Shown here: positions 6,771-23,693 of the stretch, in pieces
Layout of the letters: every line of letters begins with the position of its first letter
Numbering within the stretch: position 1 is the first letter of the stretch
Notes under the pieces: generated by a model
Databases searched by the model: none
What the model was told of the DNA's origin: nothing
What the model saw: only the letters and a program-made list of their open reading frames with translations
Source of the DNA: Candidatus Yanofskybacteria bacterium
Lineage (GTDB): Bacteria; Patescibacteriota; Minisyncoccia; 2-02-FULL-40-12; GWA2-44-9
Assembly: GCA_003514055.1 (NCBI GenBank)
Contig: DOSG01000002.1
Location: 79,825-143,824, forward strand
Length of the DNA stretch: 64,000 nucleotides
Direction of reading: 5' to 3'
Made by a program: the position numbers and the translations under genes

Positions 6771-6858
6771 CTTGAATGCACGGAGTTCTTCTGTTAAAAT
6801 ATCTAAGTTCTTATAGAACAATACATTCCGCGATAGCTCAATGGTAGAGCGGCTCCCT

Positions 6859-7387
6859 GTGGAGACTATTCCTTCGAAATAGCGCTATAATGTTATTAAT
6901 GAAGGATAAAAGAACCTATGCCGATCGTCGCGAGGAATTGATAAAAGCGGTCGCCAAAAGGCGACGCAAAGTCAAAAGTCTAGCGATAGAATATAAGGGT
7001 GGCAAATGCCAAGTTTGTGGATATTGTAAGTATCAAGGAGCTCTTGATATGCACCACATATCTGATAAGCAATTTGGCATCGGAGATAAAGGATATACGA
7101 GATCTTGGGAAAAGATTAAACAAGAACTTGATAAATGTATCCTTGTCTGCGCAAATTGTCATCGTGAGATAGAAGGCGGCATAACGCAGCTTTCCGATCG
7201 AAAGACGGATTGAAACTTTTCGGGATAACGGTGAAGCCCTAGTCCGCCGACTGGTGGATGGGTAATACCGTGGGAACCTCGTAAATTTTACGAGGGCGCC
7301 GTAGAGACTAGATACCGAAACGCCTAAATCGTAAGGTAAGATAGGGCGAAGATATAGTCCACCCCGTGTCGTAAGACATGGATTACG
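6859..7387 (+). mobile_element. Group I self-splicing intron (approximate boundaries) with an ORF in its 5' part
   Basis: Conserved core elements in the expected order: R-like gtagagactaga (~7296-7307), S-like aagatatagtcc (~7341-7352). P8-like hairpin cgccta...tagggcg between them. P9-like GNRA hairpin ccgtgtc-gtaa-gacatgg, then G before the 3' exon. Confidence 0.6.
6890..7213 (+). CDS. HNH homing endonuclease (intron-encoded)
   Basis: CQVCGYC...DMHHISDK...N...VCANCH pattern (CxxC...HH...N...CxxCH); 107 aa; lies entirely inside the intron. Confidence 0.75.
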   Translation: MLLMKDKRTYADRREELIKAVAKRRRKVKSLAIEYKGGKCQVCGYCKYQGALDMHHISDKQFGIGDKGYTRSWEKIKQELDKCILVCANCHREIEGGITQLSDRKTD

Positions 7388-9011
7388 TGTAAGGAGAAGG
7401 TTCCAGGTTCGAGTCCTGGTCGCGGAGCAGAGGGTTCAAACCAGCGCCCGAAAGGGCGTTTTGGTTTGGATTAGAGCCACTTTTTGGCGGTTCTAAAGTT
7501 TGTTTTTGTAGTTTTGCCTGTTCTGCCCTTTCTTTTATCCTTAATATCGGTTTTTTATAGAATTTGCCCAATATCTCGCCGTTTAAAGTAAGGTTCGAGA
7601 ATATAAGCGACATGAACTCTCTTTTTGCCGGTATGTCGTCTTTTAGTGATTCGTATATTTCTTTTGATTTTCTGGCCAATTCCATAAAAGAACTACCGAG
7701 TAAGAGGAAATGAGTATTGTTTTGTTTTAATTTTGATTTTTCATCGATAACCCTTTGTTGATCCTGGTCCCACGTTTGGATATTACGGTTGTATTGGTCT
7801 TCAGATATCTTGCCGTCTAGCTTGTCTATATAGCAACGATCCTTGCGTTGCTGAAGAATCTGGAATTGTCGATCCAGATTCTCGGTTGCATTTTCAAAGT
7901 AATTAACTTCTTCCCGATGATTGCTTTTTAGTACTTCCTGGACCAGGGCAATTTCGTCCGGATCAAGCCCTTGGTGGAACCAGTCGAATATCTCCTTGGC
8001 CTGGGCCTCTATCCGGTCCTCACGTGCGAATTTTAGGCCCCTACAACCCTTATAGCCGTTACATCGGTAATAGGTTCGCCCTTTATGTATCTCACCACAT
8101 ACGGTGCCACCACAGGCCTTACAGTAAACCAACTGCTTAAAGAGGTGGAAGTGCTTCCTGTGTTTAGGCGTTGTTTTGGAATGCATGAGGGACTGCACCT
8201 GGTCAAATAACTCTTTCGATATCAATGCCGGGTGCTTGGCCGGATAGATAACACCTTTCCAAACCATCGAACCGTAGTAAAAGGGATCAGACAAAAGTTC
8301 TGCAATCCGGCTTTTAAGTATCTTTCGGCCGGACTCATTTCTTAAACCTTCTCGATATAACAGCTCAACAAGTGATTTTAGTGAATGCTGACCGGAAGCA
8401 TACAATTCAAACATACGACGAGCATACGGCGATTTATTCTCATCAACTATGTGGATCTTCCTGCCCTTTTCTCCGATGGTCTTATAGCCGATAGGGGGCC
8501 TAGTGGGAAGCCAGCCCTCTTTCAGTTTTTGTGCCTGGCCCTTTTTAACCTCCTCGGACAGGTTGTTTGAGTAAAACCTAGCAATAGCAATTTTCATATC
8601 CCATACCAGATTCTCGTGGGCCTTGGTATTCTTATTTGCTATGAAGTTCTCTTTTACGAAGTGTACTTTTCGGTTTTCATTCTCAAAAACCCAATCGCCC
8701 GCTATAATTGCTTCTTTTTGATTTCGAGTCATCCGATCGATTTTCTCGCATAAGATGTTGCCAGTATTATGGTCAACAGCATAATCAATCATCTGCTTAA
8801 ATATCTTTCGTGTCTGTTTTCCGCTTGCTGATTCTGGTACAGAGAACTCCTTAACGATCTTAAGGTTTTTGGAAGCAGCATAAGTCCTGAGCAACTCCGA
8901 TTGCGCGGCTAGGGAATACCCTTCTTCTGCCTGTTCTTTAGTGGATACCCGGCAATATAGAATTGCACAGTCGACTCTTATTCTTTGTATTTTTTGGTTT
9001 TCGGAAGCCAT
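7383..9011 (-). CDS. Large serine recombinase / integrase
   Basis: N-terminal resolvase catalytic domain (AILYCRVSTKEQ, YSLAAQ); recombinase domain; Zn-ribbon CKACGGTVCG...YYRCNGYKGC; coiled-coil C-terminus; 3' end overlaps the tRNA 3' exon on the opposite strand. Confidence 0.85.
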   Translation of the reverse strand: MASENQKIQRIRVDCAILYCRVSTKEQAEEGYSLAAQSELLRTYAASKNLKIVKEFSVPESASGKQTRKIFKQMIDYAVDHNTGNILCEKIDRMTRNQKEAIIAGDWVFENENRKVHFVKENFIANKNTKAHENLVWDMKIAIARFYSNNLSEEVKKGQAQKLKEGWLPTRPPIGYKTIGEKGRKIHIVDENKSPYARRMFELYASGQHSLKSLVELLYREGLRNESGRKILKSRIAELLSDPFYYGSMVWKGVIYPAKHPALISKELFDQVQSLMHSKTTPKHRKHFHLFKQLVYCKACGGTVCGEIHKGRTYYRCNGYKGCRGLKFAREDRIEAQAKEIFDWFHQGLDPDEIALVQEVLKSNHREEVNYFENATENLDRQFQILQQRKDRCYIDKLDGKISEDQYNRNIQTWDQDQQRVIDEKSKLKQNNTHFLLLGSSFMELARKSKEIYESLKDDIPAKREFMSLIFSNLTLNGEILGKFYKKPILRIKERAEQAKLQKQTLEPPKSGSNPNQNALSGAGLNPLLRDQDSNLEPSPYT

Positions 9012-12795: not shown

Positions 12796-13747
12796 ATCTT
12801 CTGCTCCTACTTTACGCCAGCTGATATCATTACCAAACCAAGCAGACGAGTTATCAGAGTTAGCAGATTGGGTAGAAGTTTCAGCATGGATTCAATCTGA
12901 CTATCAAGTTAGTCGGGAAGAGGTACTGTCTGTTTTTTCGTTTGCATCGGATAGTAATGATGCAGAAGAAAAAGTTTCAAAGTTGTGGGACGAATTAAAA
13001 ACCCGTGCTGTAATTCTCCAAGATCATTATCCCTTTGCGTTATCTCCCGGGGAAGAGATTTTTCAATTTAAAAATAACGACCGCTACAAGGCTTATCTTT
13101 TTTGTTTACTTCTTTCGTTTGTTGGACTTACAAAAATAAACTCCAGAACATTTCCCGCTGCAAGTATTTTTGAAGAGTTATGCTCTTCTGTCGCTCAGAA
13201 ATATATTTCAAGTGAGTCAGTTCCTGCGAAAAGCTTACATTTTGGTTGGCCGCGTAATAGCTGGCCCAGAAGACAAAGATCACTATTAAAGGCCCTGCCA
13301 GAGCTTATAAGGACCCTCGGAGATGGAGAAAATCTAATTGATGGTGTCAGAAGTGGACGAAGTGCTCATACAGGAGATGCGGGTCTAGATATTGCTGCTT
13401 GGCGTCCATTCGTAGATGAGAGAAGGGGCATGTTGGTATTTTTAGGGCAGTGTGCAACTTCTAGGGACCATAATAGTTACATGAAGAAATTAGGAGACCT
13501 CGATTCATTCCTACTAGAGTGTGTTAACTTTAATTTTCCAAACACCCTAGGGTTGTTTATACCCCATATCCTGAGCGACAACGATCAATCCCACAAGGAG
13601 TACTGGGAGAGAATAAAGAGAAGGAAGAATATCCCATTTGATAGAATTAGAATTGCTCTTTATGGCGAGTCTTGGTCAAACTCTAAACTAGATACTTTTT
13701 TAAGTAGTCAACGTAAAAAATTGAAACAGGAGCACTCTCTTACTTAA
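12767..13747 (+). CDS. Hypothetical protein, putative nuclease partner (DUF1524/His-Me-finger-like, tentative)
   Basis: C-terminal IPHILSDNDQSHKEYW...N...SNSK resembles the EHIxPQ...W...N...N pattern of DUF1524; translationally coupled to the ParB-like gene. Confidence 0.35.
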   Translation: MPRKKVKKARSSAPTLRQLISLPNQADELSELADWVEVSAWIQSDYQVSREEVLSVFSFASDSNDAEEKVSKLWDELKTRAVILQDHYPFALSPGEEIFQFKNNDRYKAYLFCLLLSFVGLTKINSRTFPAASIFEELCSSVAQKYISSESVPAKSLHFGWPRNSWPRRQRSLLKALPELIRTLGDGENLIDGVRSGRSAHTGDAGLDIAAWRPFVDERRGMLVFLGQCATSRDHNSYMKKLGDLDSFLLECVNFNFPNTLGLFIPHILSDNDQSHKEYWERIKRRKNIPFDRIRIALYGESWSNSKLDTFLSSQRKKLKQEHSLT

Positions 13748-14885
13748 GAACCTTGATCGTAAAGTCGTACTCTCCAGAGTCATCGTATTTTTTGCCGAAC
13801 ATTCTAGCCTGCCGCACTTTTTTAAAAGGAGAGTAGCTTTCTTTTATTAAACTAAGTTTTTGATTGCTCCTTTTTATGCTTTTCTGGATAATTTTTCGCA
13901 AAGGGTAATTATCTTTTGTGGATTGACCTATTCTACATACTATAATCCCATCTTTACTCATTATTTTAATAAGTGACTTCCATGTGTCAGAAAGAAAATC
14001 TATATATTTTTCTTGAGATGCAATTCTGTCATCTTTGGTTATCTTGCCTCGTGATGGAAATGGCTCGAATCCTAAGAACCATAGCCTTAGCCACTGGTCT
14101 TCCTCGTAAGATGTTATTTTTAAATATGGCGGAGACATTACTACTAGCGCGGCTTTCTTACTGGTGATCTTCTTTATGTTTCTATCAATATCTCTAACAT
14201 CTCCTAAGATACAATGCCCACGAGATTTAAATTTATGCTGTTTAGAGTTTGATAGTCTGAAATTTGTCCTGTCTCGTAAAACAGAGAAGGTGTCTATATG
14301 AGGAGCCTTCATTTTATTTTTGTGCCAGAATCTAACTGAGTAGCCTGGCTTCGGGCAATACGTATGGGGCAGGTTATTGCTTAAGTAAACCTTTTTTGTT
14401 TTTTGTGTTTCCCCGTGCAAGTAGCTAAGACATAATGTTTTAATAAAAAGACCCTCCTTTGTTTGCTCTTTTTTAAGTCGGTTCCTTAACCATAAAATCT
14501 GAAGTAGGGTTTTGCTATAGTATGCATGGCGGAAAAAAAGCGGCAACCTGGAAGCTTCTTCTCTGATAGAATTCTTATCGGCCGACTCAAACTCCTTCTC
14601 TAGTTTTTCGATGTATTTTAAGCAGGTAGCCAGTTTAATGGGCCTTGTTTTTGCTTGAGTAATCGCAAACGCCACAGGGTTTATATCATTGGCTATCGCC
14701 GCTCTTCCCAGTATTCTTGCTTCCAACAAGGTGGTTCCTCTACCTGAAAAGGGGTCTATAACTAAATCTCCTGGCTTTGAATGTTTTAAGATGGCGTCTC
14801 TAGCAAATTCTGGAGGGAACATGGCAAAATAAGGGCATAGTGCATGCATTGCATCATTGTAAGTTATTGAGGATATAATTTTCAT
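13740..14885 (-). CDS. DNA methyltransferase (N6-adenine or N4-cytosine, amino-MTase)
   Basis: AdoMet motif I DLVIDPFSGRGTT near the N-terminus and catalytic motif IV SPPY (VVMSPPYL) about 210 aa downstream. Confidence 0.8.
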   Translation of the reverse strand: MKIISSITYNDAMHALCPYFAMFPPEFARDAILKHSKPGDLVIDPFSGRGTTLLEARILGRAAIANDINPVAFAITQAKTRPIKLATCLKYIEKLEKEFESADKNSIREEASRLPLFFRHAYYSKTLLQILWLRNRLKKEQTKEGLFIKTLCLSYLHGETQKTKKVYLSNNLPHTYCPKPGYSVRFWHKNKMKAPHIDTFSVLRDRTNFRLSNSKQHKFKSRGHCILGDVRDIDRNIKKITSKKAALVVMSPPYLKITSYEEDQWLRLWFLGFEPFPSRGKITKDDRIASQEKYIDFLSDTWKSLIKIMSKDGIIVCRIGQSTKDNYPLRKIIQKSIKRSNQKLSLIKESYSPFKKVRQARMFGKKYDDSGEYDFTIKVLK

Positions 14886-15770: not shown

Positions 15771-15900
15771 GCCGACTAACGTCGGCTTTTTTATTCCAAA
15801 CAGATTCTGACATCAATGCATCAACGGAGCTAGCAGCGCTGCTATACGAAAGTTGACAAATGCCACGAGGGTGGTATTTTAGACTTAGTTTGCTCACAAA
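15771..15900 (+). promoter_or_regulatory. Intergenic module A: hairpin terminator (gccgactaacgtcggc+T7), conserved element ccaaacagattctgacatcaatgcatcaacggagc, then promoter TTGACA / ATGCCAC-gagg-GTGGTAT / TATTTTAG
   Basis: a homologous module occurs at 22086-22185. Confidence 0.6.
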
Positions 15901-15909
15901 GGATAGGCA

Positions 15910-16113
15910 ATGGCCAAACTGTCCATTAACGATATAAGACGGCGGATTAAACAAGCATCAGAGACCGGGCAAGCCTCGTGCGACATCGGGATTGAAGGGG
16001 CATTTCTAGTTCTCTTTGCTGGGATGTCCTTGAATGAAAGAAAACATATATCGAAACGAAAAAGTGAGGGGCGAAGAAGGCCAAACTCAAGCTCAAAGAA
16101 AAGAGCTCGCTGA
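15910..16113 (+). CDS. Small basic protein (67 aa), hypothetical
   Basis: ORF directly downstream of the operator-bearing promoter. Confidence 0.35.
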   Translation: MAKLSINDIRRRIKQASETGQASCDIGIEGAFLVLFAGMSLNERKHISKRKSEGRRRPNSSSKKRAR

Positions 16114-16228
16114 CCGAGAACGGTCATTTTTTAATCCAAACAGATCCTGGCATTCTTTACTCAGCGGAGCACCTATAAAAAGCCAGATAATACTGGCTTT
16201 TTGGTTGGACCTAATGTGGACGTTAGAA

Positions 16229-16927
16229 CTAATCTATCCTTTTCAAGACAAGGTCGCTGAACATACCCGGTATATTTTCGATTACCCACCCTGGCATATA
16301 TTTTTCAAACATAATTTTAAAATACTCCGAGCGTTCTTTCGCCTTACCTTTCCTGCGTAATTTATCGGGTAAAAAATCCTTATCAAATAGTGAATAATAT
16401 AATTCGAACACTTCGTGAGGCAAATGTCCGCTTTTTATTTCATCTCGAGTCAATTTATTGTTGGGATTTGCCAGAATCTCTTCTATGCACCTCCCTACGT
16501 CGCTCCCATAATAAGCAGTATCTGCCGGTGATATGCCGATTGCTTTAATTGATTTCAAGGAAGCCGCGGCTTCAATAAAAGAAGAGATGGCATTCCGAAG
16601 TATCGTCTGATCTTCTGGGCTTAGCCTTATCCGGGCGTATGCATATTCTCTAGTTTTAAATAGGAAGCTGTAACTATTGCCATAGCCTTCGGAAAGTCGG
16701 AATATATACTTTAGCCCGCCAATCGTCTTTTGTAAGGTATAGCGATTGTATGGTTGCTCCTCGCGTCGGAATGCGAAGGGGTAGGTCGTTGAATGATAAA
16801 TCTTTCCTTCTTCTAACTCTGGAAGGTTTTCTAACTCCAATTCTCGTTCGCTTTCGACGACTATGGGGGAGTTCGGCTTATGCTCTATAATCTTTTTGGC
16901 TTCGTTACTATTCCATTCTTGGCTCAT
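16229..16927 (-). CDS. Hypothetical protein (232 aa)
   Basis: long ORF on the minus strand inside the cassette region. Confidence 0.5.
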   Translation of the reverse strand: MSQEWNSNEAKKIIEHKPNSPIVVESERELELENLPELEEGKIYHSTTYPFAFRREEQPYNRYTLQKTIGGLKYIFRLSEGYGNSYSFLFKTREYAYARIRLSPEDQTILRNAISSFIEAAASLKSIKAIGISPADTAYYGSDVGRCIEEILANPNNKLTRDEIKSGHLPHEVFELYYSLFDKDFLPDKLRRKGKAKERSEYFKIMFEKYMPGWVIENIPGMFSDLVLKRID

Positions 16928-17099
16928 GATAATAATTCTACTATTAAATTTATTAAATGGTAGGGACGGCTAGATTAAATATTCAGATATTCTCTCAAGT
17001 CGGGGATATGCAAAAAATTCTCTTTTTTGATCACAGTTCTAACGTCATTCACAATGCGGAGCATTTTTCAGAGAGTGGCTTAAAACACCACTTTTTGAT

Positions 17100-17221
17100 A
17101 TTGCAAATATTAGGATTTTGTGCTATAATATAGACAATGTTGCACCATCTAATCTGGATGCGTGCAGGCAGACCGTAAACCAACGATCCAGCACAGCTGG
17201 ACGGATGGAAGGAGAGCGGCT
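17100..17221 (+). promoter_or_regulatory. Promoter TTGCAAAT...TGCTATAAT plus a conserved 52-nt leader (hairpin ccagc-aca-gctgg; RBS ggaaggagag) ahead of paralogue 1
   Basis: nearly identical to 23146-23264. Confidence 0.55.
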
Positions 17222-17650
17222 ATGGCAACTATGGTGTTGCTCGACAACAATGGCGAGAAAGTACGGACTCTCGGGTCGATCATCAATCCGAACCCGGATC
17301 TGGTCATCCCGCAGGGGTGGATGCTCAGTTGGGAAAATCAGTTCATGGAGGTCACTGCGACCGATCGTCTGAAAAATGCCGTGCTTACGCACGGGAAGGC
17401 CCGCGTCCTGGTCAATGTCGTGATGCAGACGCTCGTGGTCAGAATCGAGAGCCCGAATGTGAGGGATCTCGTGGAGGCAATCGACCTCATGGTTCAGTAC
17501 GTCGGGGGCGAGGTCGCTACGTTCAGCCCCTCCGCCGCCAACAATTCGTTCGTCGGCGGCATCAAGAACGACCTCGTCTTTCTTCGAAACATGGCGGTAC
17601 GGGCCATTCGCTCGCTACGGCAGCGAACTGGCTTCAAGATCGCGCGCTAA
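17222..17650 (+). CDS. GC-rich hypothetical protein, paralogue 1 (~142 aa)
   Basis: start MATMVLLDNNGEK after the RBS; 180 nt identical to the 23218-23398 copy, then diverged; own big-stem terminator downstream. Confidence 0.6.
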   Translation: MATMVLLDNNGEKVRTLGSIINPNPDLVIPQGWMLSWENQFMEVTATDRLKNAVLTHGKARVLVNVVMQTLVVRIESPNVRDLVEAIDLMVQYVGGEVATFSPSAANNSFVGGIKNDLVFLRNMAVRAIRSLRQRTGFKIAR

Positions 17651-17855
17651 GCGCTCACACCTCGCATCGAGACAGGGGATCCCAATCCTCGTCTGGTGCG
17701 GGGTCCTTTGTTTTTATACGTATCCAAGACTAATTAAATCTCCCCGAATTCTTACTCAATCCAGCGTTCTGAATGCGTTCCGTAGGCAGAGCAAAGCTTG
17801 ACAATAGCACTAGATGGTGCTATTGTTATTTTAACCTTAAAACTAGGAGAGTGTC

Positions 17856-18059
17856 ATGCGAATAGTTGCCGATGCGTCAAAACGTACATTGAAATTAACT
17901 GCCGAAACTGATATTGACGAGGATGAATTGATAAGAGCGAACTACGTAGTGGTAAGTTCCAAAAAGTGGTACCAATTTTGGAAAAAATCACCAACCGTTA
18001 AATTGACAATGGCTGGAGATAAGAATAAATATCTTCAGGCAATAGAAATCTCTTTCTAG
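17856..18059 (+). CDS. Small hypothetical protein (67 aa)
   Basis: promoter TTGACA-ATAGCAC-N6-GTGCTAT upstream; RBS aggaga; terminator gacccacagtgtgggtc follows. Confidence 0.4.
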   Translation: MRIVADASKRTLKLTAETDIDEDELIRANYVVVSSKKWYQFWKKSPTVKLTMAGDKNKYLQAIEISF

Positions 18060-18127
18060 GTGACCCACAGTGTGGGTCTTTCTTTTGCCTCAAAACAGTC
18101 TCTAACATCAAAGCGTTCGGGGAGTTA

Positions 18128-18162
18128 ACTTGATTATATCACGGAAACGTGGTATAATTATT
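18128..18162 (+). promoter_or_regulatory. Promoter TTGATT-N17-TGgTATAAT (extended -10)
   Basis: acttgattatatcacggaaacgtggtataattat; near-duplicate at 19808-19842. Confidence 0.55.
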
Positions 18163-18197
18163 CTAGTTCTCAAAAACCCAAGAAAGGAGTCAGTATA

Positions 18198-19322
18198 ATG
18201 AGTCTGAAACTGCGTCGGAGAGATAGACTATGGGTCATAACCCAAGGCCTGCCGCACGCTGTCGTGGCGGAAGTCCTCCTCGATCCTTGGGATCAGGTGG
18301 GCGAAGTCGTTCTGTATGCAGATTCCTCCGAGCAAGTTCAGCTCGAGGTTCTGCGTCTTGCGGCCTCACATGTTCGACAGTACGTTCGACATCGGACGGC
18401 TTCGGCTTTCGGTGGCCTCATGGTTGCCGAACATCGTAATCACAACCTGACGCGAGATGATTCCGACCGTTTCATGGATTTCTCGACGATCCCGTCGGAG
18501 ATTCAGGAGATGAATCGGGAGACGCTCACAAGAGGACTTCGCGAACTCCACATCAGTGTCTTTGCTGCCGTCCATCGGCGAGCCGAAGATGCAATCAGCG
18601 CCGCCATCGAACAAGTTGGCGTCGCTGGTCTCAAGTACGAAGTGATTCCCCAAAGGATGATCTTCGATACCGAGTTGATGGTTCGTTTCACCGTCGAAGA
18701 GCCGAACAGCTTCACCTTCTGGCACAGTCAGTCCAGGCCTGGTGGCGGGTTCGATCTCTACATCGTCCCGGCTTATCATCCCGTGATGAACGGGAAAGAG
18801 TCAGTTGGAATGGTCAACGGCGCTACAGATGCTTACATTCGCGGCAACGCGGTGAGAAGCATCTACTGCCCGGAGGACGCACAAGCAACAGATCCCAGTA
18901 AGAACTTCGGTACGAGCTGGAATCACGTGAAGCATCCGTTCTACGCGACAGGTCGTTCGATGGCGGTGAAGTTGATCACCACGAAGGTTCGTTCAGCCGA
19001 AAGCATGGAGGAGCTCACTCAGCTTCTGCGTGCTGCTCTCGGTCTGGACAACAAGTACGTGGACATCAGCGGCGGTTTCAATGCTCCGCTAAAGTGCGGG
19101 TACAATCGCATCGTTGAACTCGGCATCAGATCGCCCTATCCGCAAGCCGAGTACAGGCGCGGCGGTAACATCACTCGCGGTTCCGAACAACATTGCGTAT
19201 GGTCTTATCGAGTCCTCAAGGAAGAGGGGCAACTCGAGAAGGCCTACATTCCTTCCTGGTTTATCAAAGAAGGCTGGCTGAAGATCTACGAAGGCGCTGA
19301 AGAACGCCACGGTCTCTACTGA
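18198..19322 (+). CDS. GC-rich hypothetical protein (374 aa)
   Basis: strong RBS aaaggagtcagtataATG; GC content far above the surrounding DNA; terminator 19347-19396. Confidence 0.6.
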   Translation: MSLKLRRRDRLWVITQGLPHAVVAEVLLDPWDQVGEVVLYADSSEQVQLEVLRLAASHVRQYVRHRTASAFGGLMVAEHRNHNLTRDDSDRFMDFSTIPSEIQEMNRETLTRGLRELHISVFAAVHRRAEDAISAAIEQVGVAGLKYEVIPQRMIFDTELMVRFTVEEPNSFTFWHSQSRPGGGFDLYIVPAYHPVMNGKESVGMVNGATDAYIRGNAVRSIYCPEDAQATDPSKNFGTSWNHVKHPFYATGRSMAVKLITTKVRSAESMEELTQLLRAALGLDNKYVDISGGFNAPLKCGYNRIVELGIRSPYPQAEYRRGGNITRGSEQHCVWSYRVLKEEGQLEKAYIPSWFIKEGWLKIYEGAEERHGLY

Positions 19323-19494
19323 TGAGCAAGCTCAGAAATCACCTGCCCGCGAGAGCCCGCACATTACGTGCCCGCCTCGCGGGCTCTCTCTTTTTATACA
19401 AACGCATATTTTATTAAATCATTGTGAATACTAACCCAATCCAGCGTTCTGAATGCGTTCCGTAGGCAGAGCTGACAGCATTATTGCAAGTATA

Positions 19495-19524
19495 TTGACA
19501 AATACCACGCGAGTGGTATTCTAG
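19495..19524 (+). promoter_or_regulatory. Promoter with operator: TTGACA-a-ATACCAC-gcga-GTGGTAT-TCTAG
   Basis: perfect 7-bp inverted repeat between -35 and -10. Confidence 0.6.
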
Positions 19525-19556
19525 GTCAAGTTGATCGTTCTCTGAGGTAAGAGGCG

Positions 19557-19742
19557 ATGAATAAAAAACCACGTTCACCATATCGCAAGAAGCCTTTGCC
19601 TTGTCCTTTTGGATGTCCTGGGTGTTTAGGGAGATTTTTGGGCAAAAAATGTGAATGTTCGAATACGCTGTCAACGTGTCAGCGTGCTCGCAAAGGCGAG
19701 TGCAATGAGTGCCATGCCTGTCGTTCATGTCGAGATGCATGA
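19557..19742 (+). CDS. Cysteine-rich small peptide (61 aa, 12 Cys)
   Basis: CPFGCPGCLGRFLGKKCECSNTLSTCQRARKGECNECHACRSC; RBS gaggtaagagg; terminator caaaccgccatattggcggttt follows. Confidence 0.45.
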   Translation: MNKKPRSPYRKKPLPCPFGCPGCLGRFLGKKCECSNTLSTCQRARKGECNECHACRSCRDA

Positions 19743-19856
19743 TCAAACCGCCATATTGGCGGTTTTTATTTTCTAGATAGATCCTGATTTTATCCAGCGG
19801 AGTAGCACTTGATTATATCGTGTAAATGTGGTATAATTACTATACGGGGTGGCAAA

Positions 19857-20138
19857 ATGAATAAGGATACCGGGTGGATGATTGCTTCCGGGGTGGTAGG
19901 CTTCTTGTTCTTCTTGATCGCAAATTTCACAAACTTCTTTGCTGGCGCTAGTGTTCTGGCCGGCTGTCTCCAGCTTTGTGTTAATGCTTTTGTGTTCGTT
20001 GTCTGGGCCAGAGCATTCATGCGAAGCCATGGTTTTAAGAAGTTTGTGGCTTTCTTCGGAGTGATCGTCCCCGTCGGTATGGCGGGCGTTACTCTTTGGA
20101 GAATTCTAATCCCTGCAATCACAGCATCATTTGTTTGA
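19857..20138 (+). CDS. Small membrane protein (93 aa)
   Basis: two predicted TM segments; extended -10 promoter 19808-19842; terminator gaccgagaacggtc+T7 follows. Confidence 0.5.
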   Translation: MNKDTGWMIASGVVGFLFFLIANFTNFFAGASVLAGCLQLCVNAFVFVVWARAFMRSHGFKKFVAFFGVIVPVGMAGVTLWRILIPAITASFV

Positions 20139-20265
20139 TGCTCGCTGACCGAGAACGGTCTTTTTTTGTTGCAAAATAGGTTCTGATATTGATGCGTCAG
20201 CGAAGTTGGCGGCATTGCTACGTGAAAGCCAGACAAAGCTGGCTTTTTGGTTGAATCTGGTATAG

Positions 20266-20760
20266 ATGCCGGGGCTATGCTACGATTGGATCATGAATAT
20301 CATGCGGATATTATTGTATACTCTGGTTGCACTATTATTATGCTTGGTGGTCGTCTGGCTTGCTGTTGGAATTTGGAATGTCGATAAAGTTTACGGAAAG
20401 AAGATGTTTGGCTACCAAGAAGACAAAATTTGTATTGAATGTTTCAATGGTACTCGTACGGGTACTTGTCCACAACTGATGGATGATAAGCTCACATATC
20501 CACGCGCCGCTGAATCAACAGAAATGATGGATTCGGCGCCTAATGATAGTTCGGATTATTCCGATAGCCATGTTATTAGAAATGGGTTTTGCACTCAATT
20601 TCACTCTACATTAACTACCGAAGGGCAGGATTATATTAAAAGATTCCAGACGATGCCAATACCGGAGAAGAGTTATGCTGAGTCGCTTGGGGTAGCTTGG
20701 CGATATGTGGGAGATTTTTTTGTTGCTATTATCTGTCGCACCATTGGATGTAAAATGTAG
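20266..20760 (+). CDS. Membrane-anchored Cys-containing hypothetical protein (164 aa)
   Basis: N-terminal TM segment; terminator 20808-20850. Confidence 0.45.
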   Translation: MPGLCYDWIMNIMRILLYTLVALLLCLVVVWLAVGIWNVDKVYGKKMFGYQEDKICIECFNGTRTGTCPQLMDDKLTYPRAAESTEMMDSAPNDSSDYSDSHVIRNGFCTQFHSTLTTEGQDYIKRFQTMPIPEKSYAESLGVAWRYVGDFFVAIICRTIGCKM

Positions 20761-20912
20761 TTTATTATTTAATCCAAGTAGACTCTGGCCTCATTCACCA
20801 GACCGATCAAACTAAAACACCGTATCTTATGCGGTGTTTTAGTTTGATCGGTCACTTATTCGTCGTAGAGTAGGCCACGTATGGCATACTCTTAACTCGG
20901 GAATATAGATGT

Positions 20913-22040
20913 TTATCTCAGCTCTTTGATCATCCGTAGCTTCAAGCTTACGGCCGTTCCAATTGCAGTCAGGCTGAACAGAGAAATAACGGCATACCCT
21001 ACGAATGGAATGAACCAGAGGATAATATATGCGGCCACGCCAATTAACATAGTCTTCCAGCTAACGTCGAAATTCGTTTTCTTAGTAAGCCATTTATATA
21101 GAAGTGAACCTATGAATATCGGAGTTAAGGCACAGCTAAGGATACTAAGAGCAACAATACTTATGATGCCTAAAATTCCAAGCGGAATTCCAACGACCGT
21201 AACCAGAAGTAGAATAGATATTACGGGTAAGATAATAACAGTGACGAACCCCTTTCCAAGTGCGGCCCAGGGAGACTTGAAGGCAGTCTCAACTGCTTCA
21301 ACGCTGTAGCGTCTGAACATGATACCCATTAAGAATACTAGGACAATCATCATCAAGGCCTTCATGATCAACCAGAATGATATGAAAGCTTTGATAGGTC
21401 GACTTTCGTTACGCATCGCTTTCGATTCATAAGAAACTGTGCCAAGAATTTTTGCCTCGCTATCTCTAGACATTTCATTGGGTGAACGATAGGTAAGATT
21501 GCCGCTAATAACAGCTTTCGGTCCCAATTTCAATTGAGTGGCATCGACAATAATATCTCCAGTCACGGTGGAATTTATATATACCAATGCTCCTGCTATC
21601 CGAGCCTTACCTCGAACAGAAGCCTCGACATTAATTGAATTGCCGCCAAGTAAGAGGTCGCCACCCACTTGGCCACCGGAAACCGTAATCTGATTGCCGC
21701 CTATCATGGCATCGCCGCCAACGTTGCCCTGAATAAAAACAGTATTGCCGATAATCTTAACGTCGTCGTCGACATTGGCAGTAATGACAACATTGTTGCC
21801 AGCTGAAAAGAGATCTTGGCTGACCTGGTTACTTATGAGGACGGATTGACCTGCCGCAAAGAGATCTCCGATTATTGTACCAGTGACGGATACGCTACTG
21901 CCGGCGATATACAGATCATCGCTGACTATCTCTGACGAGCCGACGGTTGGGTTGCTTCCGCTCGTAAATGTCGCACCAAGAGCTACCGCTGGCAACAAAA
22001 GTGCCATGGCAACAAAGAGTATAATTTTTTGTTTGTTCAT
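20913..22040 (-). CDS. Bactofilin-like (beta-helical repeat) protein with signal peptide and C-terminal TM domain
   Basis: repeated G-rich beta-solenoid units (IIGDLFAAGQSV.., VGGDAMIGGNQITVSGG.., GDIIVDA..) followed by four TM helices. Confidence 0.5.
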   Translation of the reverse strand: MNKQKIILFVAMALLLPAVALGATFTSGSNPTVGSSEIVSDDLYIAGSSVSVTGTIIGDLFAAGQSVLISNQVSQDLFSAGNNVVITANVDDDVKIIGNTVFIQGNVGGDAMIGGNQITVSGGQVGGDLLLGGNSINVEASVRGKARIAGALVYINSTVTGDIIVDATQLKLGPKAVISGNLTYRSPNEMSRDSEAKILGTVSYESKAMRNESRPIKAFISFWLIMKALMMIVLVFLMGIMFRRYSVEAVETAFKSPWAALGKGFVTVIILPVISILLLVTVVGIPLGILGIISIVALSILSCALTPIFIGSLLYKWLTKKTNFDVSWKTMLIGVAAYIILWFIPFVGYAVISLFSLTAIGTAVSLKLRMIKELR

Positions 22041-22152
22041 ATCTATACTATAGCAAGTATCAGCAAATTTTCCAAAAATTCTCTAGCCGACTAGCGTCGG
22101 TTTTTTATTCCCAACAGATTTTGGCCTCATTTGCTCAGCGTGATGCACTTGA

Positions 22153-22185
22153 TTGACAGAACGCGATTTCGGTGGTATTATTAAT
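22153..22185 (+). promoter_or_regulatory. Promoter TTGACA...GTGGTAT half-site...TATTATTAAT
   Basis: member of the operator-promoter family; left half-site degenerate. Confidence 0.45.
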
Positions 22186-22211
22186 ATATCCTGAAATCTG
22201 GAGGTTGTGCC

Positions 22212-22421
22212 ATGCCCGACATTCGTAAGTGTGCAGTCTGTCGCGTTGAGTTTGACTTCGACGAGTCCGGGCTAGAGGGTCCAAACGACGTCGTGGTCTG
22301 CGGCGCGGTCTGTGCCAAAAAGTCTGCCGCCAGTCGTGGAAGCGAATATGTGATCCACGACGGCGAGGGGGCGGTAGTTGAGACGAACATCACTCCTGGC
22401 ATCAAGACTCACCGCTGGTAA
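22212..22421 (+). CDS. GC-rich small Cys protein (zinc-ribbon-like CxxC...CxxxC), 69 aa
   Basis: CAVCRVEF...VVVCGAVC; RBS ggagg. Confidence 0.45.
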   Translation: MPDIRKCAVCRVEFDFDESGLEGPNDVVVCGAVCAKKSAASRGSEYVIHDGEGAVVETNITPGIKTHRW

Positions 22422-22462
22422 TCTTATCTCGAACGCCACATCAAGGAACAGGAGGAGTGCAA

Positions 22463-22678
22463 ATGAAAGTCACGGTTCTCGAGAAACCGACCGGAGGAAC
22501 GTGGTCACGATCTGAGGTTGAGGCTATCATGGGGACAATGACCGAAGTCGAACAGCTACCGAGGCTGCCGAATCGTATCGTGCTCATGAACAAGCCGCTC
22601 CGTGGTTCGATCTCGTGCGCTCTGGGCCACACCAACTACGTCGCGCGAGAAGTGGACTACCACGATCGCTGGGCCTAG
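22463..22678 (+). CDS. GC-rich small hypothetical protein (72 aa)
   Basis: RBS aggagg; terminator 22683-22740. Confidence 0.4.
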   Translation: MKVTVLEKPTGGTWSRSEVEAIMGTMTEVEQLPRLPNRIVLMNKPLRGSISCALGHTNYVAREVDYHDRWA

Positions 22679-22861
22679 CTATCGGCCCGCCTACTTGGCG
22701 ACGGAAACCCGTCGACTCAAGTCGGCGGGCTTCTTTTTTTATCCATATCCAGCTGAGTCTTTTTGGGTGTTTGCCGAGGTTGTCGATCTGAATATGTTCT
22801 GTGAGCGAAGCAAGGCATGCGGATGGTTTACGAATATCGTTTTAATTGATATGCTAAAGTT

Positions 22862-23062
22862 ATGCAAAAAATAGCTACAAAAGTATTCGTCGGGGCGTCT
22901 GTCGCTTTCGGTATTATCGGACTGTCGATGGTTGTGACAACATCTCCTGAAAGCAACGGCCCGAATGTTGTTCTGTTGAAACTTCTCTTCACTAGCGTCA
23001 TTGTCATTTTAACCTCGTTCGCTCTAAGTGTAGCCAGTAAGTATCTCAACAATAAGTCCTAA
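22862..23062 (+). CDS. Small membrane protein (66 aa)
   Basis: two hydrophobic helices; terminator aaaagtgcc-ttaaat-gggcactttttgg. Confidence 0.4.
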   Translation: MQKIATKVFVGASVAFGIIGLSMVVTTSPESNGPNVVLLKLLFTSVIVILTSFALSVASKYLNNKS

Positions 23063-23264
23063 TCTCAGTTAGGTTATAGAATTGATGCCCAAGAGGAGAG
23101 GGGCGCGTCTTTCAAAAAGTGCCTTAAATGGGCACTTTTTGGTATTGCAAACGTTACAGTTTCGTGCTATAATATAAATAATGTTGTGGCGTCTAACCTG
23201 GGCGTCGCGAACAGACCGTAAACCAACGATCCAGCACAGCTGGACGGATGGAAGGAGAGCGGCT

Positions 23265-23693
23265 ATGGCAACTATGGTGTTGCTCGACAACAATGGCGAG
23301 AAAGTACGGACTCTCGGGTCGATCATCAATCCGAACCCGGATCTGGTCATCCCGCAGGGGTGGATGCTCAGTTGGGAAAATCAGTTCATGGAGGTCCTCG
23401 CAAAGGACCACCTGAACAACGCCGTACTAACGCATGGGAAGGCTCTCGTTCTGGTCACCGCTATGATGAGTACGGTTGTGGTCCGGATTGAGAGCCCGAA
23501 CGTGAAGGACCTGGTCGAGGCGATCGACCTCGTGACCCGGTACCTTGGCGGCGAGGTTGCCACCTTCAGCCCCAACGCCGCCAACAATTCGTTCATTGGC
23601 GGTATCAAGAATGACCTCATCTTCCTTTGGGGGAAGACGACTCAGGCCATTCGCTCGCTACGGCAGCGGATTGGTTTCAAGATCGCACGCTAA
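23265..23693 (+). CDS. GC-rich hypothetical protein, paralogue 2 (~142 aa)
   Basis: same promoter, leader and first ~45 codons as 17222-17650. Confidence 0.6.
   Translation: MATMVLLDNNGEKVRTLGSIINPNPDLVIPQGWMLSWENQFMEVLAKDHLNNAVLTHGKALVLVTAMMSTVVVRIESPNVKDLVEAIDLVTRYLGGEVATFSPNAANNSFIGGIKNDLIFLWGKTTQAIRSLRQRIGFKIAR

Follow-up and report, generated by a model that had tools for sequence, protein, structure and literature searches.

A 64-kb stretch of a Candidatus Yanofskybacteria draft genome (the whole stretch is called the window, and coordinates given without a locus handle are those of the window) carries a tRNA gene (6827-7427, plus strand) whose two exons, 6827-6860 and 7390-7427, are separated by a 529-nt group I intron. 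The probability that this locus is a tRNA-Asn(GUU) gene split between tRNA positions 35 and 36 by a self-splicing group I intron with an HNH open reading frame (ORF) is put at about 0.9. A sequence-only reading of the window had proposed a tRNA gene split in the anticodon loop by a group I intron with an HNH endonuclease, and this proposal is supported by covariation and by homologous introns that score 61-96 bits against the group I model. Judged by comparison with related loci, the fold, the splice sites and the identity of the tRNA are established. The sequence-only reading had also called such introns uncommon in bacteria and the intron position unusual, which is right in general, and is already on record for this phylum (PMC13011429). 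In that study of 95 complete Patescibacteria genomes, 15 tRNA-Asn(GUU) genes were found to have group I introns at 35/36 (Nakagawa et al., mSystems 2026; PMC13011429; bioRxiv 10.1101/2025.07.03.662931). Because both the class and its splicing have been published, the window locus is a new example rather than a new kind, and what is new here are extras: the breadth of the HNH family, the purifying selection on it, a conserved TATAAT box, and free-standing copies of the gene beside tRNA-Asn.

The two tRNA halves fit together as parts of one cloverleaf. The 5' half reads TCCGCGA-TA-GCTC-AATGGTA-GAGC-G-GCTCC-CTGT, and the 3' half reads TAA-GGAGA-AGGTT-CCAGG-TTCGAGT-CCTGG-TCGCGGA-G. As had been noted from the sequence, the acceptor halves TCCGCGA (6827-6833) and TCGCGGA (7420-7426) are exact complements, and the D-arm and T-arm are canonical. 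The 5' exon contains tRNA positions 1-35 and ends in CUGU (C32, U33, G34, U35), an ending shared, as CTGT, by 73 of 73 homologous loci. The 3' exon, delimited by ARAGORN and by the homologs, contains positions 36-73 (U36, A37 and A38 through to the discriminator G73), and CCA is absent from the gene-encoded 3' end. With its intron search on, ARAGORN reported a single split tRNA in the 64-kb window, at 6827-7428 with a 529-nt intron. When the exons were joined in silico, the program called the product tRNA-Asn(gtt), and the best full-length matches to the joined exons were annotated tRNA-Asn genes in phage records, at 77-81% identity. The same locus was found on metagenome scaffolds of 105-171 kb, downstream of dnaG and rpoD. 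A consensus scan placed a promoter-like site (TTGAAT, 17 nt, TG-n-TAAAAT; 6772-6800, plus strand) 5' of the tRNA gene, a match that alone does not imply function, and a terminator-like hairpin with a T-rich tail (7443-7470, plus strand) 3' of it.

A 542-aa large serine recombinase ORF abuts the tRNA gene, with its last codons antisense through the 3' exon, as might be expected if the two halves were leftovers of integration by that recombinase, either as an attL/attR-type duplication or as a disrupted tRNA, and the tRNA gene were dead. However, the halves are not duplicates but complementary 5' and 3' parts of one cloverleaf, the 529 nt between them are a ribozyme and an HNH gene rather than an integrated element, and the same split tRNA recurs in dozens of other genomes. 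Even when three mismatches were allowed, the 64 kb contained a single copy of the tRNA 3' part, and no direct repeat involves it. An attL/attR origin, which the sequence-only reading had named as an alternative, is excluded on the grounds of the single cloverleaf, the single 3' part and the missing repeat, and integration leftovers of any sort are given practically no weight; the adjoining recombinase is regarded as unconnected with the split.

The insertion site of the intron in the tRNA-Asn gene was examined in relatives of the ORF, which were fetched from species-representative genomes. At least 421 genomes encode such a relative; 80 loci were kept and 73 of these were parsed under one model, and 69 of the 73 parsed loci, all from other Patescibacteria, had a split tRNA with the HNH ORF inside. 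Two splice choices satisfy the rule of a U at the exon end and a G at the intron end: splicing after U33 would give tRNA-Thr(UGU), and splicing after U35 would give tRNA-Asn(GUU). The sequence-only reading had left these two open; the second stands and the first does not. A tRNA-Thr(UGU) gene with an intron between 33 and 34 is what ARAGORN itself reported in intron mode (tRNA-Thr(tgt), 529-nt intron at position 33), and in the window alone this choice obeys the group I rules (CU/GU...ACG/UG, with exon end U and intron end G). Across the homologs it fails. The 5' exon end CTGT and the G before TAA were found in all 73 loci, while the base two positions upstream of the terminal G was G in 45 loci and A in 26, with T and C found once each. 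Read as 33/34, the intron would therefore end in A, T or C in 28 of 73 homologs and the anticodon would vary (UGU or CGU), whereas the 35/36 reading keeps the terminal G in 73 of 73. In addition, the invariant guide GCAG pairs with CUGU, G34 and U35 included, and the full-length matches of the tRNA body are annotated tRNA-Asn genes, both contrary to tRNA-Thr. ARAGORN named the split tRNA around the ORF in almost all relatives, inconsistently, as Thr, Asn or His. ARAGORN and tFind often name the published genes Thr(UGU) at 33/34 as well, and the sequenced spliced product of a class member was Asn at 35/36 (PMC13011429). With the terminal-G rule broken, the anticodon inconstant, and the guide pairing and tRNA-Asn matches opposed to it, the tRNA-Thr(UGU) assignment was dropped as highly improbable. 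Because CTGT and G are invariant, and because of the joined-exon call and the tRNA-Asn matches, the intron is placed at 6861-7389, and the comparative data settle its position as 35/36 in tRNA-Asn(GUU).

The intron so delimited (529 nt, plus strand; identified from Rfam, ARAGORN, covariation and homologs) can be folded into the group I helices P1-P9. The 5' strand of P1 (6857-6861) is made up of the exon bases C32-U35 and the first intron base, with the 5' splice site after U6860, and it pairs with 7185-7189, a strand that includes the internal guide GCAG (7186-7189), unchanged across all 73 loci. The pairs are C6857-G7189, U6858-A7188, G6859-C7187, the wobble U6860.G7186 at the splice site, and G6861-C7185. 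These five pairs were formed in 100% of 16 relatives, among which P1 and P7 never vary, and the U.G wobble within CUGU/GCAG was invariant in all 73 loci. P2 (7194-7208) is a hairpin, CCGAUC-GAAA-GACGG, with one bulged A and a GNRA-type loop, and shows compensatory changes with some register noise. The 5' strand of P3 (UUUCGG, 7218-7223) pairs with its 3' strand (CCGAAA, 7315-7320) in 100% of the 16 relatives, with double changes at four of the six pairs, and the covariation model joins P3 to P7 in a pseudoknot. The P4-P5-P6 domain (7229-7300) consists of P4 (7229-7233/7266-7270), P5 (7236-7239/7260-7263), P6 (7272-7273/7299-7300) and P6a (7277-7283/7289-7295), with P4/P5 pairing at 93% in relatives.

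The core elements that had been listed from the sequence were found in place. The element GTAGAGACTAGA at 7301-7312 corresponds to J6/7 and the 5' strand of P7 (GUAGAGACUAGA; P7 = GACUA, 7306-7310), which is invariant in relatives and pairs with UAGUC at 7355-7359. The P8 hairpin, CGCC ... GGCG (7321-7348), is 100% paired in relatives and has double changes at two of its four pairs. The element AAGATATAGTCC at 7349-7360 corresponds to J8/7 and the 3' strand of P7 (AAGAUAUAGUCC), as indicated by the Rfam alignment and by invariance. The proposed GNRA hairpin followed by a G was likewise present, as P9 (7364-7381), with a GUAA tetraloop and double changes at five of seven pairs in an alignment whose register is loose, and as the terminal guanosine (omega-G) at 7389, which on the 35/36 reading is a G in every one of the 73 loci and after which the 3' splice site lies.

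For the covariation test, 16 compact-type introns were aligned with the ORF removed and were scored under a hand-built P1-P9 model together with the exon anticodon stem; the model contained helices P1, P2, P3, P4, P5, P6, P6a, P7, P8 and P9, with P7 written as a pseudoknot with P3. Under this model 91.3% of cells were paired, versus 35-48% when the partners were slid by 1-3 columns, 24 pairs showed double changes, and none of 500 shuffles was as good. The group I fold, including the P3/P7 pseudoknot, is supported by this covariation in relatives. Homologous introns at the same tRNA site scored 61.4-96.3 bits against Rfam Intron_gpI, past the cut-off, among them L023, which is of the compact type (61.4 bits), and L069, which has no ORF. 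The exons are able to pair as an anticodon stem, and such exon pairing reportedly matters for the Anabaena pre-tRNA intron, a result ascribed to work by Zaug et al. in 1993 (cited in PMC3984707). An alternative hairpin between the first intron bases, GGAG, and CUCC of the anticodon stem was dropped, as it is not conserved in relatives.

Two ribozyme cores occur at the same tRNA site with the same HNH family. The compact core was found in 18 loci, including the window, and the larger core in 55 of 73. By inspection, P7 of the compact core is followed directly by GAUA and P3', while in the larger core two additional hairpins, which look like those of subgroup IA, separate the P7 5' strand from P3'. 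HNH identity was not sorted by ribozyme type (A-A 0.82, B-B 0.78, A-B 0.79), and it therefore says nothing firm on exchange between the intron types.

The HNH-type endonuclease ORF (6899-7213, plus strand; 104 aa and a stop codon) lies in the P1 loop (L1). This placement follows from four ORF-less relatives (L019, L031, L046 and L069), in which P1 is a plain hairpin, CUGU(C)-AGAA-(G)GCAG. The sequence-only reading had described an HNH ORF of 107 aa in the 5' part of the intron; the ORF and its motif were recovered, and the start it used, an upstream ATG at 6890, is replaced by the more likely ATG at 6899, which is preferred because of the homolog alignment and because the same protein (P0002) is annotated from that start at 104 aa. 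A hypothetical protein of Candidatus Yanofskybacteria GW2011_GWF1_44 has exactly the sequence of the ORF product (100% identity), and from this match and the metagenome scaffolds the window is taken to be part of a Patescibacteria chromosome. The product has the catalytic His-(Asn/Asp)-His motif and the paired CxxC zinc ligands. Its two CxxC pairs and its DxHH and CANCH motifs do not vary across 18 relatives, in which C40/C43, H55 H56, C87/C90 and H91 (107-aa ORF numbering) are the same throughout. These invariant HNH and zinc residues align with the HNH domain of a group II intron maturase, and that domain was the best (E 0.01) of the marginal matches in a profile search of solved structures. 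Pfam HNH matched 14 of the 18 close relatives at E values up to 0.01, the best being 5.3e-05. An AlphaFold model of the window protein had a pLDDT of 76.4, and its top Foldseek matches in the PDB were all HNH nucleases: Cap5 (probability 0.99, E 0.028), Gme HNH, T4 endonuclease VII and the Cas9 HNH domain. On motif and family grounds the product is accepted as an HNH-type nuclease.

Over 60 introns, pN was 0.16 versus a pS of 0.84, and no dN/dS ratio is given because the synonymous sites are saturated. As judged from these values, the HNH ORF is under strong purifying selection and has long been kept by selection. The protein and the ribozyme also share bases. The guide GCAG falls within the codons ACG-CAG, which specify the Thr-Gln of a conserved ITQL motif (Q100 is invariant in the protein alignment), and the stop codon (7211-7213) comes just 3' of P2. 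In L003, L034, L043, L051, L061, L063, L073, L078 and other relatives the HNH frame meets no stop codon until well inside the ribozyme core, as much as ~450 nt from the start of the intron, and conserved ribozyme sequence is read as a C-terminal tail (e.g. ...VEKRGEFGE...).

Several results weigh against the reading of the locus as a tRNA-Asn gene with an active, mobile intron. Default ARAGORN found no tRNA anywhere in the 64-kb window, and a whole-window Rfam gathering scan reported nothing at the locus. A local scan of 701 nt did return the group I model, Intron_gpI (RF00028), at 7153-7381, with 44.6 bits and an E value of 4.5e-10, below the curated cut-off of 50. Inspection by eye gave no convincing P10, in which UAAGG of the 3' exon would pair with bases 5' of the guide. 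The window protein scored 17.3 bits against Pfam HNH (PF01844), whose cut-off is 21.4, and Foldseek gave no PDB fold match for it at E 0.001. Finally, strong purifying selection with saturated synonymous sites fits long vertical retention at least as well as frequent homing. The local Rfam score is explained in part, because the model put its P1 and P2 inside ORF sequence.

An Rfam score under the cut-off, together with a compact ribozyme that is without the two extra hairpins of most relatives, could also be taken to indicate that the window copy is a decayed, non-splicing intron and the locus a tRNA pseudogene. Such a dead intron is very unlikely, because every core helix is intact with canonical pairs in the window and the compact type, common to 16 to 18 loci, shows compensatory changes; one of these loci, L023, is past the Rfam cut-off at 61.4 bits. 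The intact ORF and the canonical tRNA exons are likewise contrary to decay.

Another possible explanation accepts the intron as real and has the HNH protein kept for a role other than homing, such as maturase-like help in folding or another nuclease or regulatory function that benefits the host. Homing endonuclease genes usually decay after fixation. A family of >2,800 protein clusters, present in at least 421 species genomes at amino-acid identities of 70-88%, would fit a non-homing role, as would a pN of 0.16 at saturated synonymous sites and the overlap of the ORF with the guide and P2. However, there is no variation in the catalytic HNH residues or in either zinc-binding cysteine pair, for which a pure maturase would have no use. 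Introns of the same type occur without an ORF, and most tRNA introns are without an endonuclease gene (PMC13011429). Free-standing HNH copies are also found beside tRNA-Asn genes, as expected of an endonuclease tied to that target. A non-homing role is considered unlikely, and homing, with the cleavage activity and target that this implies, is the most likely function of the HNH protein.

If the split tRNA-Asn gene works as its fold predicts, it would be transcribed as its own unit, from the promoter-like site at 6772-6800 to the downstream terminator-like hairpin. In the transcript, the exon end C32-U35 and the guide GCAG (7186-7189) would form P1, with the U.G wobble at the splice site, and the P3-P9 core (7218-7381) would fold. 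An external guanosine would attack after U6860, and the freed exon end would then attack after G7389, so that the exons would be joined into a 72-nt tRNA-Asn to which CCA would be added later. These catalytic steps are inferred from the fold. For another tRNA-Asn 35/36 intron of the class, from a different Patescibacteria genome, precise self-splicing was shown in vitro, with the product sequenced and a terminal omega-G-to-C change as control (PMC13011429).

The HNH gene may be expressed separately from the tRNA. A -10-like TATAAT box, a candidate internal promoter, is present at 6886-6891 (plus strand), 7 nt before ATG 6899, and is conserved in homologous introns: the exact TATAAT occurs in 45 of 63 of them, in 39 cases 6-8 nt before the ATG, and often has TG-n ahead of it. 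This conservation suggests that the HNH gene is transcribed from a promoter of its own within the intron, as a leaderless mRNA. The gene would then probably be read from this box as such an mRNA, and the protein would cut intron-less tRNA-Asn genes near the anticodon region, after which repair would copy the intron and its ORF into the cut gene (homing).

Among known systems, the window intron is closest to the published Patescibacteria class, with which it shares phylum, tRNA, insertion site and HNH family. Default annotation fails in both, ARAGORN miscalls both as Thr(UGU) with the intron at 33/34, and in both the ORF takes the intron length past 500 nt. Nearly all Patescibacteria tRNA introns were put in subgroup IA, and four of the tRNA-Asn introns had HNH (PF01844) endonucleases (PMC13011429). 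The window differs in that its genome is a draft metagenome bin, outside that complete-genome set, and in that two hairpins found between P7 and P3' in most relatives are absent from its ribozyme. The number of HNH-bearing cases also differs, with 4 there versus an HNH family in at least 421 species genomes here. The text of PMC13011429 makes no mention of an ORF promoter, a leaderless mRNA, an internal guide or free-standing copies.

The intron of cyanobacterial (Cyanobacteriota) tRNA-fMet is also a bacterial anticodon-loop group I intron with a homing endonuclease gene whose expected target is the intron-less tRNA gene. That intron is at position 33/34 and has a PD-(D/E)XK nuclease, in contrast to the tRNA-Asn, 35/36 position, HNH nuclease and Patescibacteria host of the window. 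The Anabaena/Nostoc tRNA-Leu(UAA) and Azoarcus tRNA-Ile introns (subgroup IC3) resemble the window intron in their anticodon-loop insertion, in a P1-P9 core of about 200 nt without P7.1/P7.2, and in exons that can pair as an anticodon stem. The Azoarcus intron has J6/7-P7 of the GUAGAGACUAGA type. These introns are at positions 34/35 or 36/37 and have no ORF, and the close relatives of the window intron mostly carry IA-like extra hairpins; the likeness to IC3 is one of these shared features.

In 'collaborative homing', free-standing homing endonucleases act with ORF-less introns, as in T4 mobE and cyanophage F-CphI (PMC2790892, PMC6083498; reviewed in PMC3984707). A similar arrangement is seen where the HNH gene is just outside a tRNA-Asn gene with an ORF-less intron (4 of 73 loci) and, in one phage contig, beside an intron-less tRNA-Asn gene. 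The difference is that the HNH gene of the window is inside the intron.

The HNH family was found in at least 421 species-representative genomes and comprised >2,800 protein clusters at 70-88% amino-acid identity, with the relatives coming from Parcubacteria-type bins. This suggests that the HNH-bearing form of the intron is much more widespread than the four complete-genome cases. In the 4 of 73 loci with a free-standing HNH gene (L019, 1501-2143; L046, 1501-2114; L069, 1501-2175; L031, 1187-1809), the adjacent tRNA-Asn has an ORF-less 35/36 intron of 186-242 nt. The HNH gene is just upstream of tRNA-Asn in L019, L046 and L069 and downstream in L031, and L019 has the same rpoD-tRNA-Asn neighbourhood as the window. 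A scan of 2.9 million viral contigs gave a single HNH-family match (L083, 1402-1818; IMGVR_UViG_3300009873_000002, 128.8 kb), an intact gene for 118 aa at 65% identity, inside a phage array of 19 tRNA genes, with a stop codon that overlaps the start of an intron-less tRNA-Asn(GTT). With one match in that scan, a phage-borne origin of the window element is unsupported.

The HNH family may be a dedicated, long-lived companion of tRNA-Asn, although this is put forward tentatively, as somewhat less probable than an even chance. Its members stand beside an intron-less gene (L083), beside a gene with an ORF-less intron (L019, L031, L046, L069), or inside the P1 loop, where they would start leaderless from a -10 box of their own and the codons of the C-terminus double as the guide, and these arrangements could form a series in which an endonuclease and a ribozyme merge into a mobile intron. 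If this were so, the three arrangements would show the merger of endonuclease and ribozyme, and the merged element would have been kept by selection across hundreds of candidate phyla radiation (CPR) species. The free-standing copies next to tRNA-Asn offer a testable route to the origin of such mobile introns.

The window adds a draft-genome member to the published intron class. Its genome looks as if it were without tRNA-Asn, because default ARAGORN finds nothing and the intron mode says Thr. A tRNA-Asn gene that is missed or misnamed in this way distorts estimates of CPR genome completeness, a point already made in PMC13011429.

Next to the tRNA gene, the large serine recombinase ORF (7383-9011, minus strand; 542 aa) has Resolvase, Recombinase and Zn-ribbon domains, as found by domain search, and its last ~15 codons are antisense through the tRNA 3' exon and the intron end. 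Beyond it are unannotated ORFs, a DNA methylase (13740-14885) and an HTH match too weak to reach the Pfam cut-off, and G+C is lower at 8-14 kb of the window. The recombinase region may be an integrated element adjoining the tRNA gene; no att repeat was found. The sole match reported when the whole window was scanned against Rfam at gathering thresholds was a LOOT RNA (Rfam RF03000; 10889-11011, plus strand; 76.4 bits, E 1.3e-12, far past the cut-off), which lies between unannotated ORFs in this possible mobile region.

Further along the window is a cluster of repeats (15787-23511) where G+C is locally higher, up to 0.50. It includes a 300-nt pair that is 89% identical (17169-17468 and 23212-23511), a 100-nt pair and a 92-nt pair, and six copies of a 44-nt unit (at 15787, 16127, 18082, 20163, 20765 and 22101). 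These repeats may represent duplicated gene cassettes with shared flanking signals.

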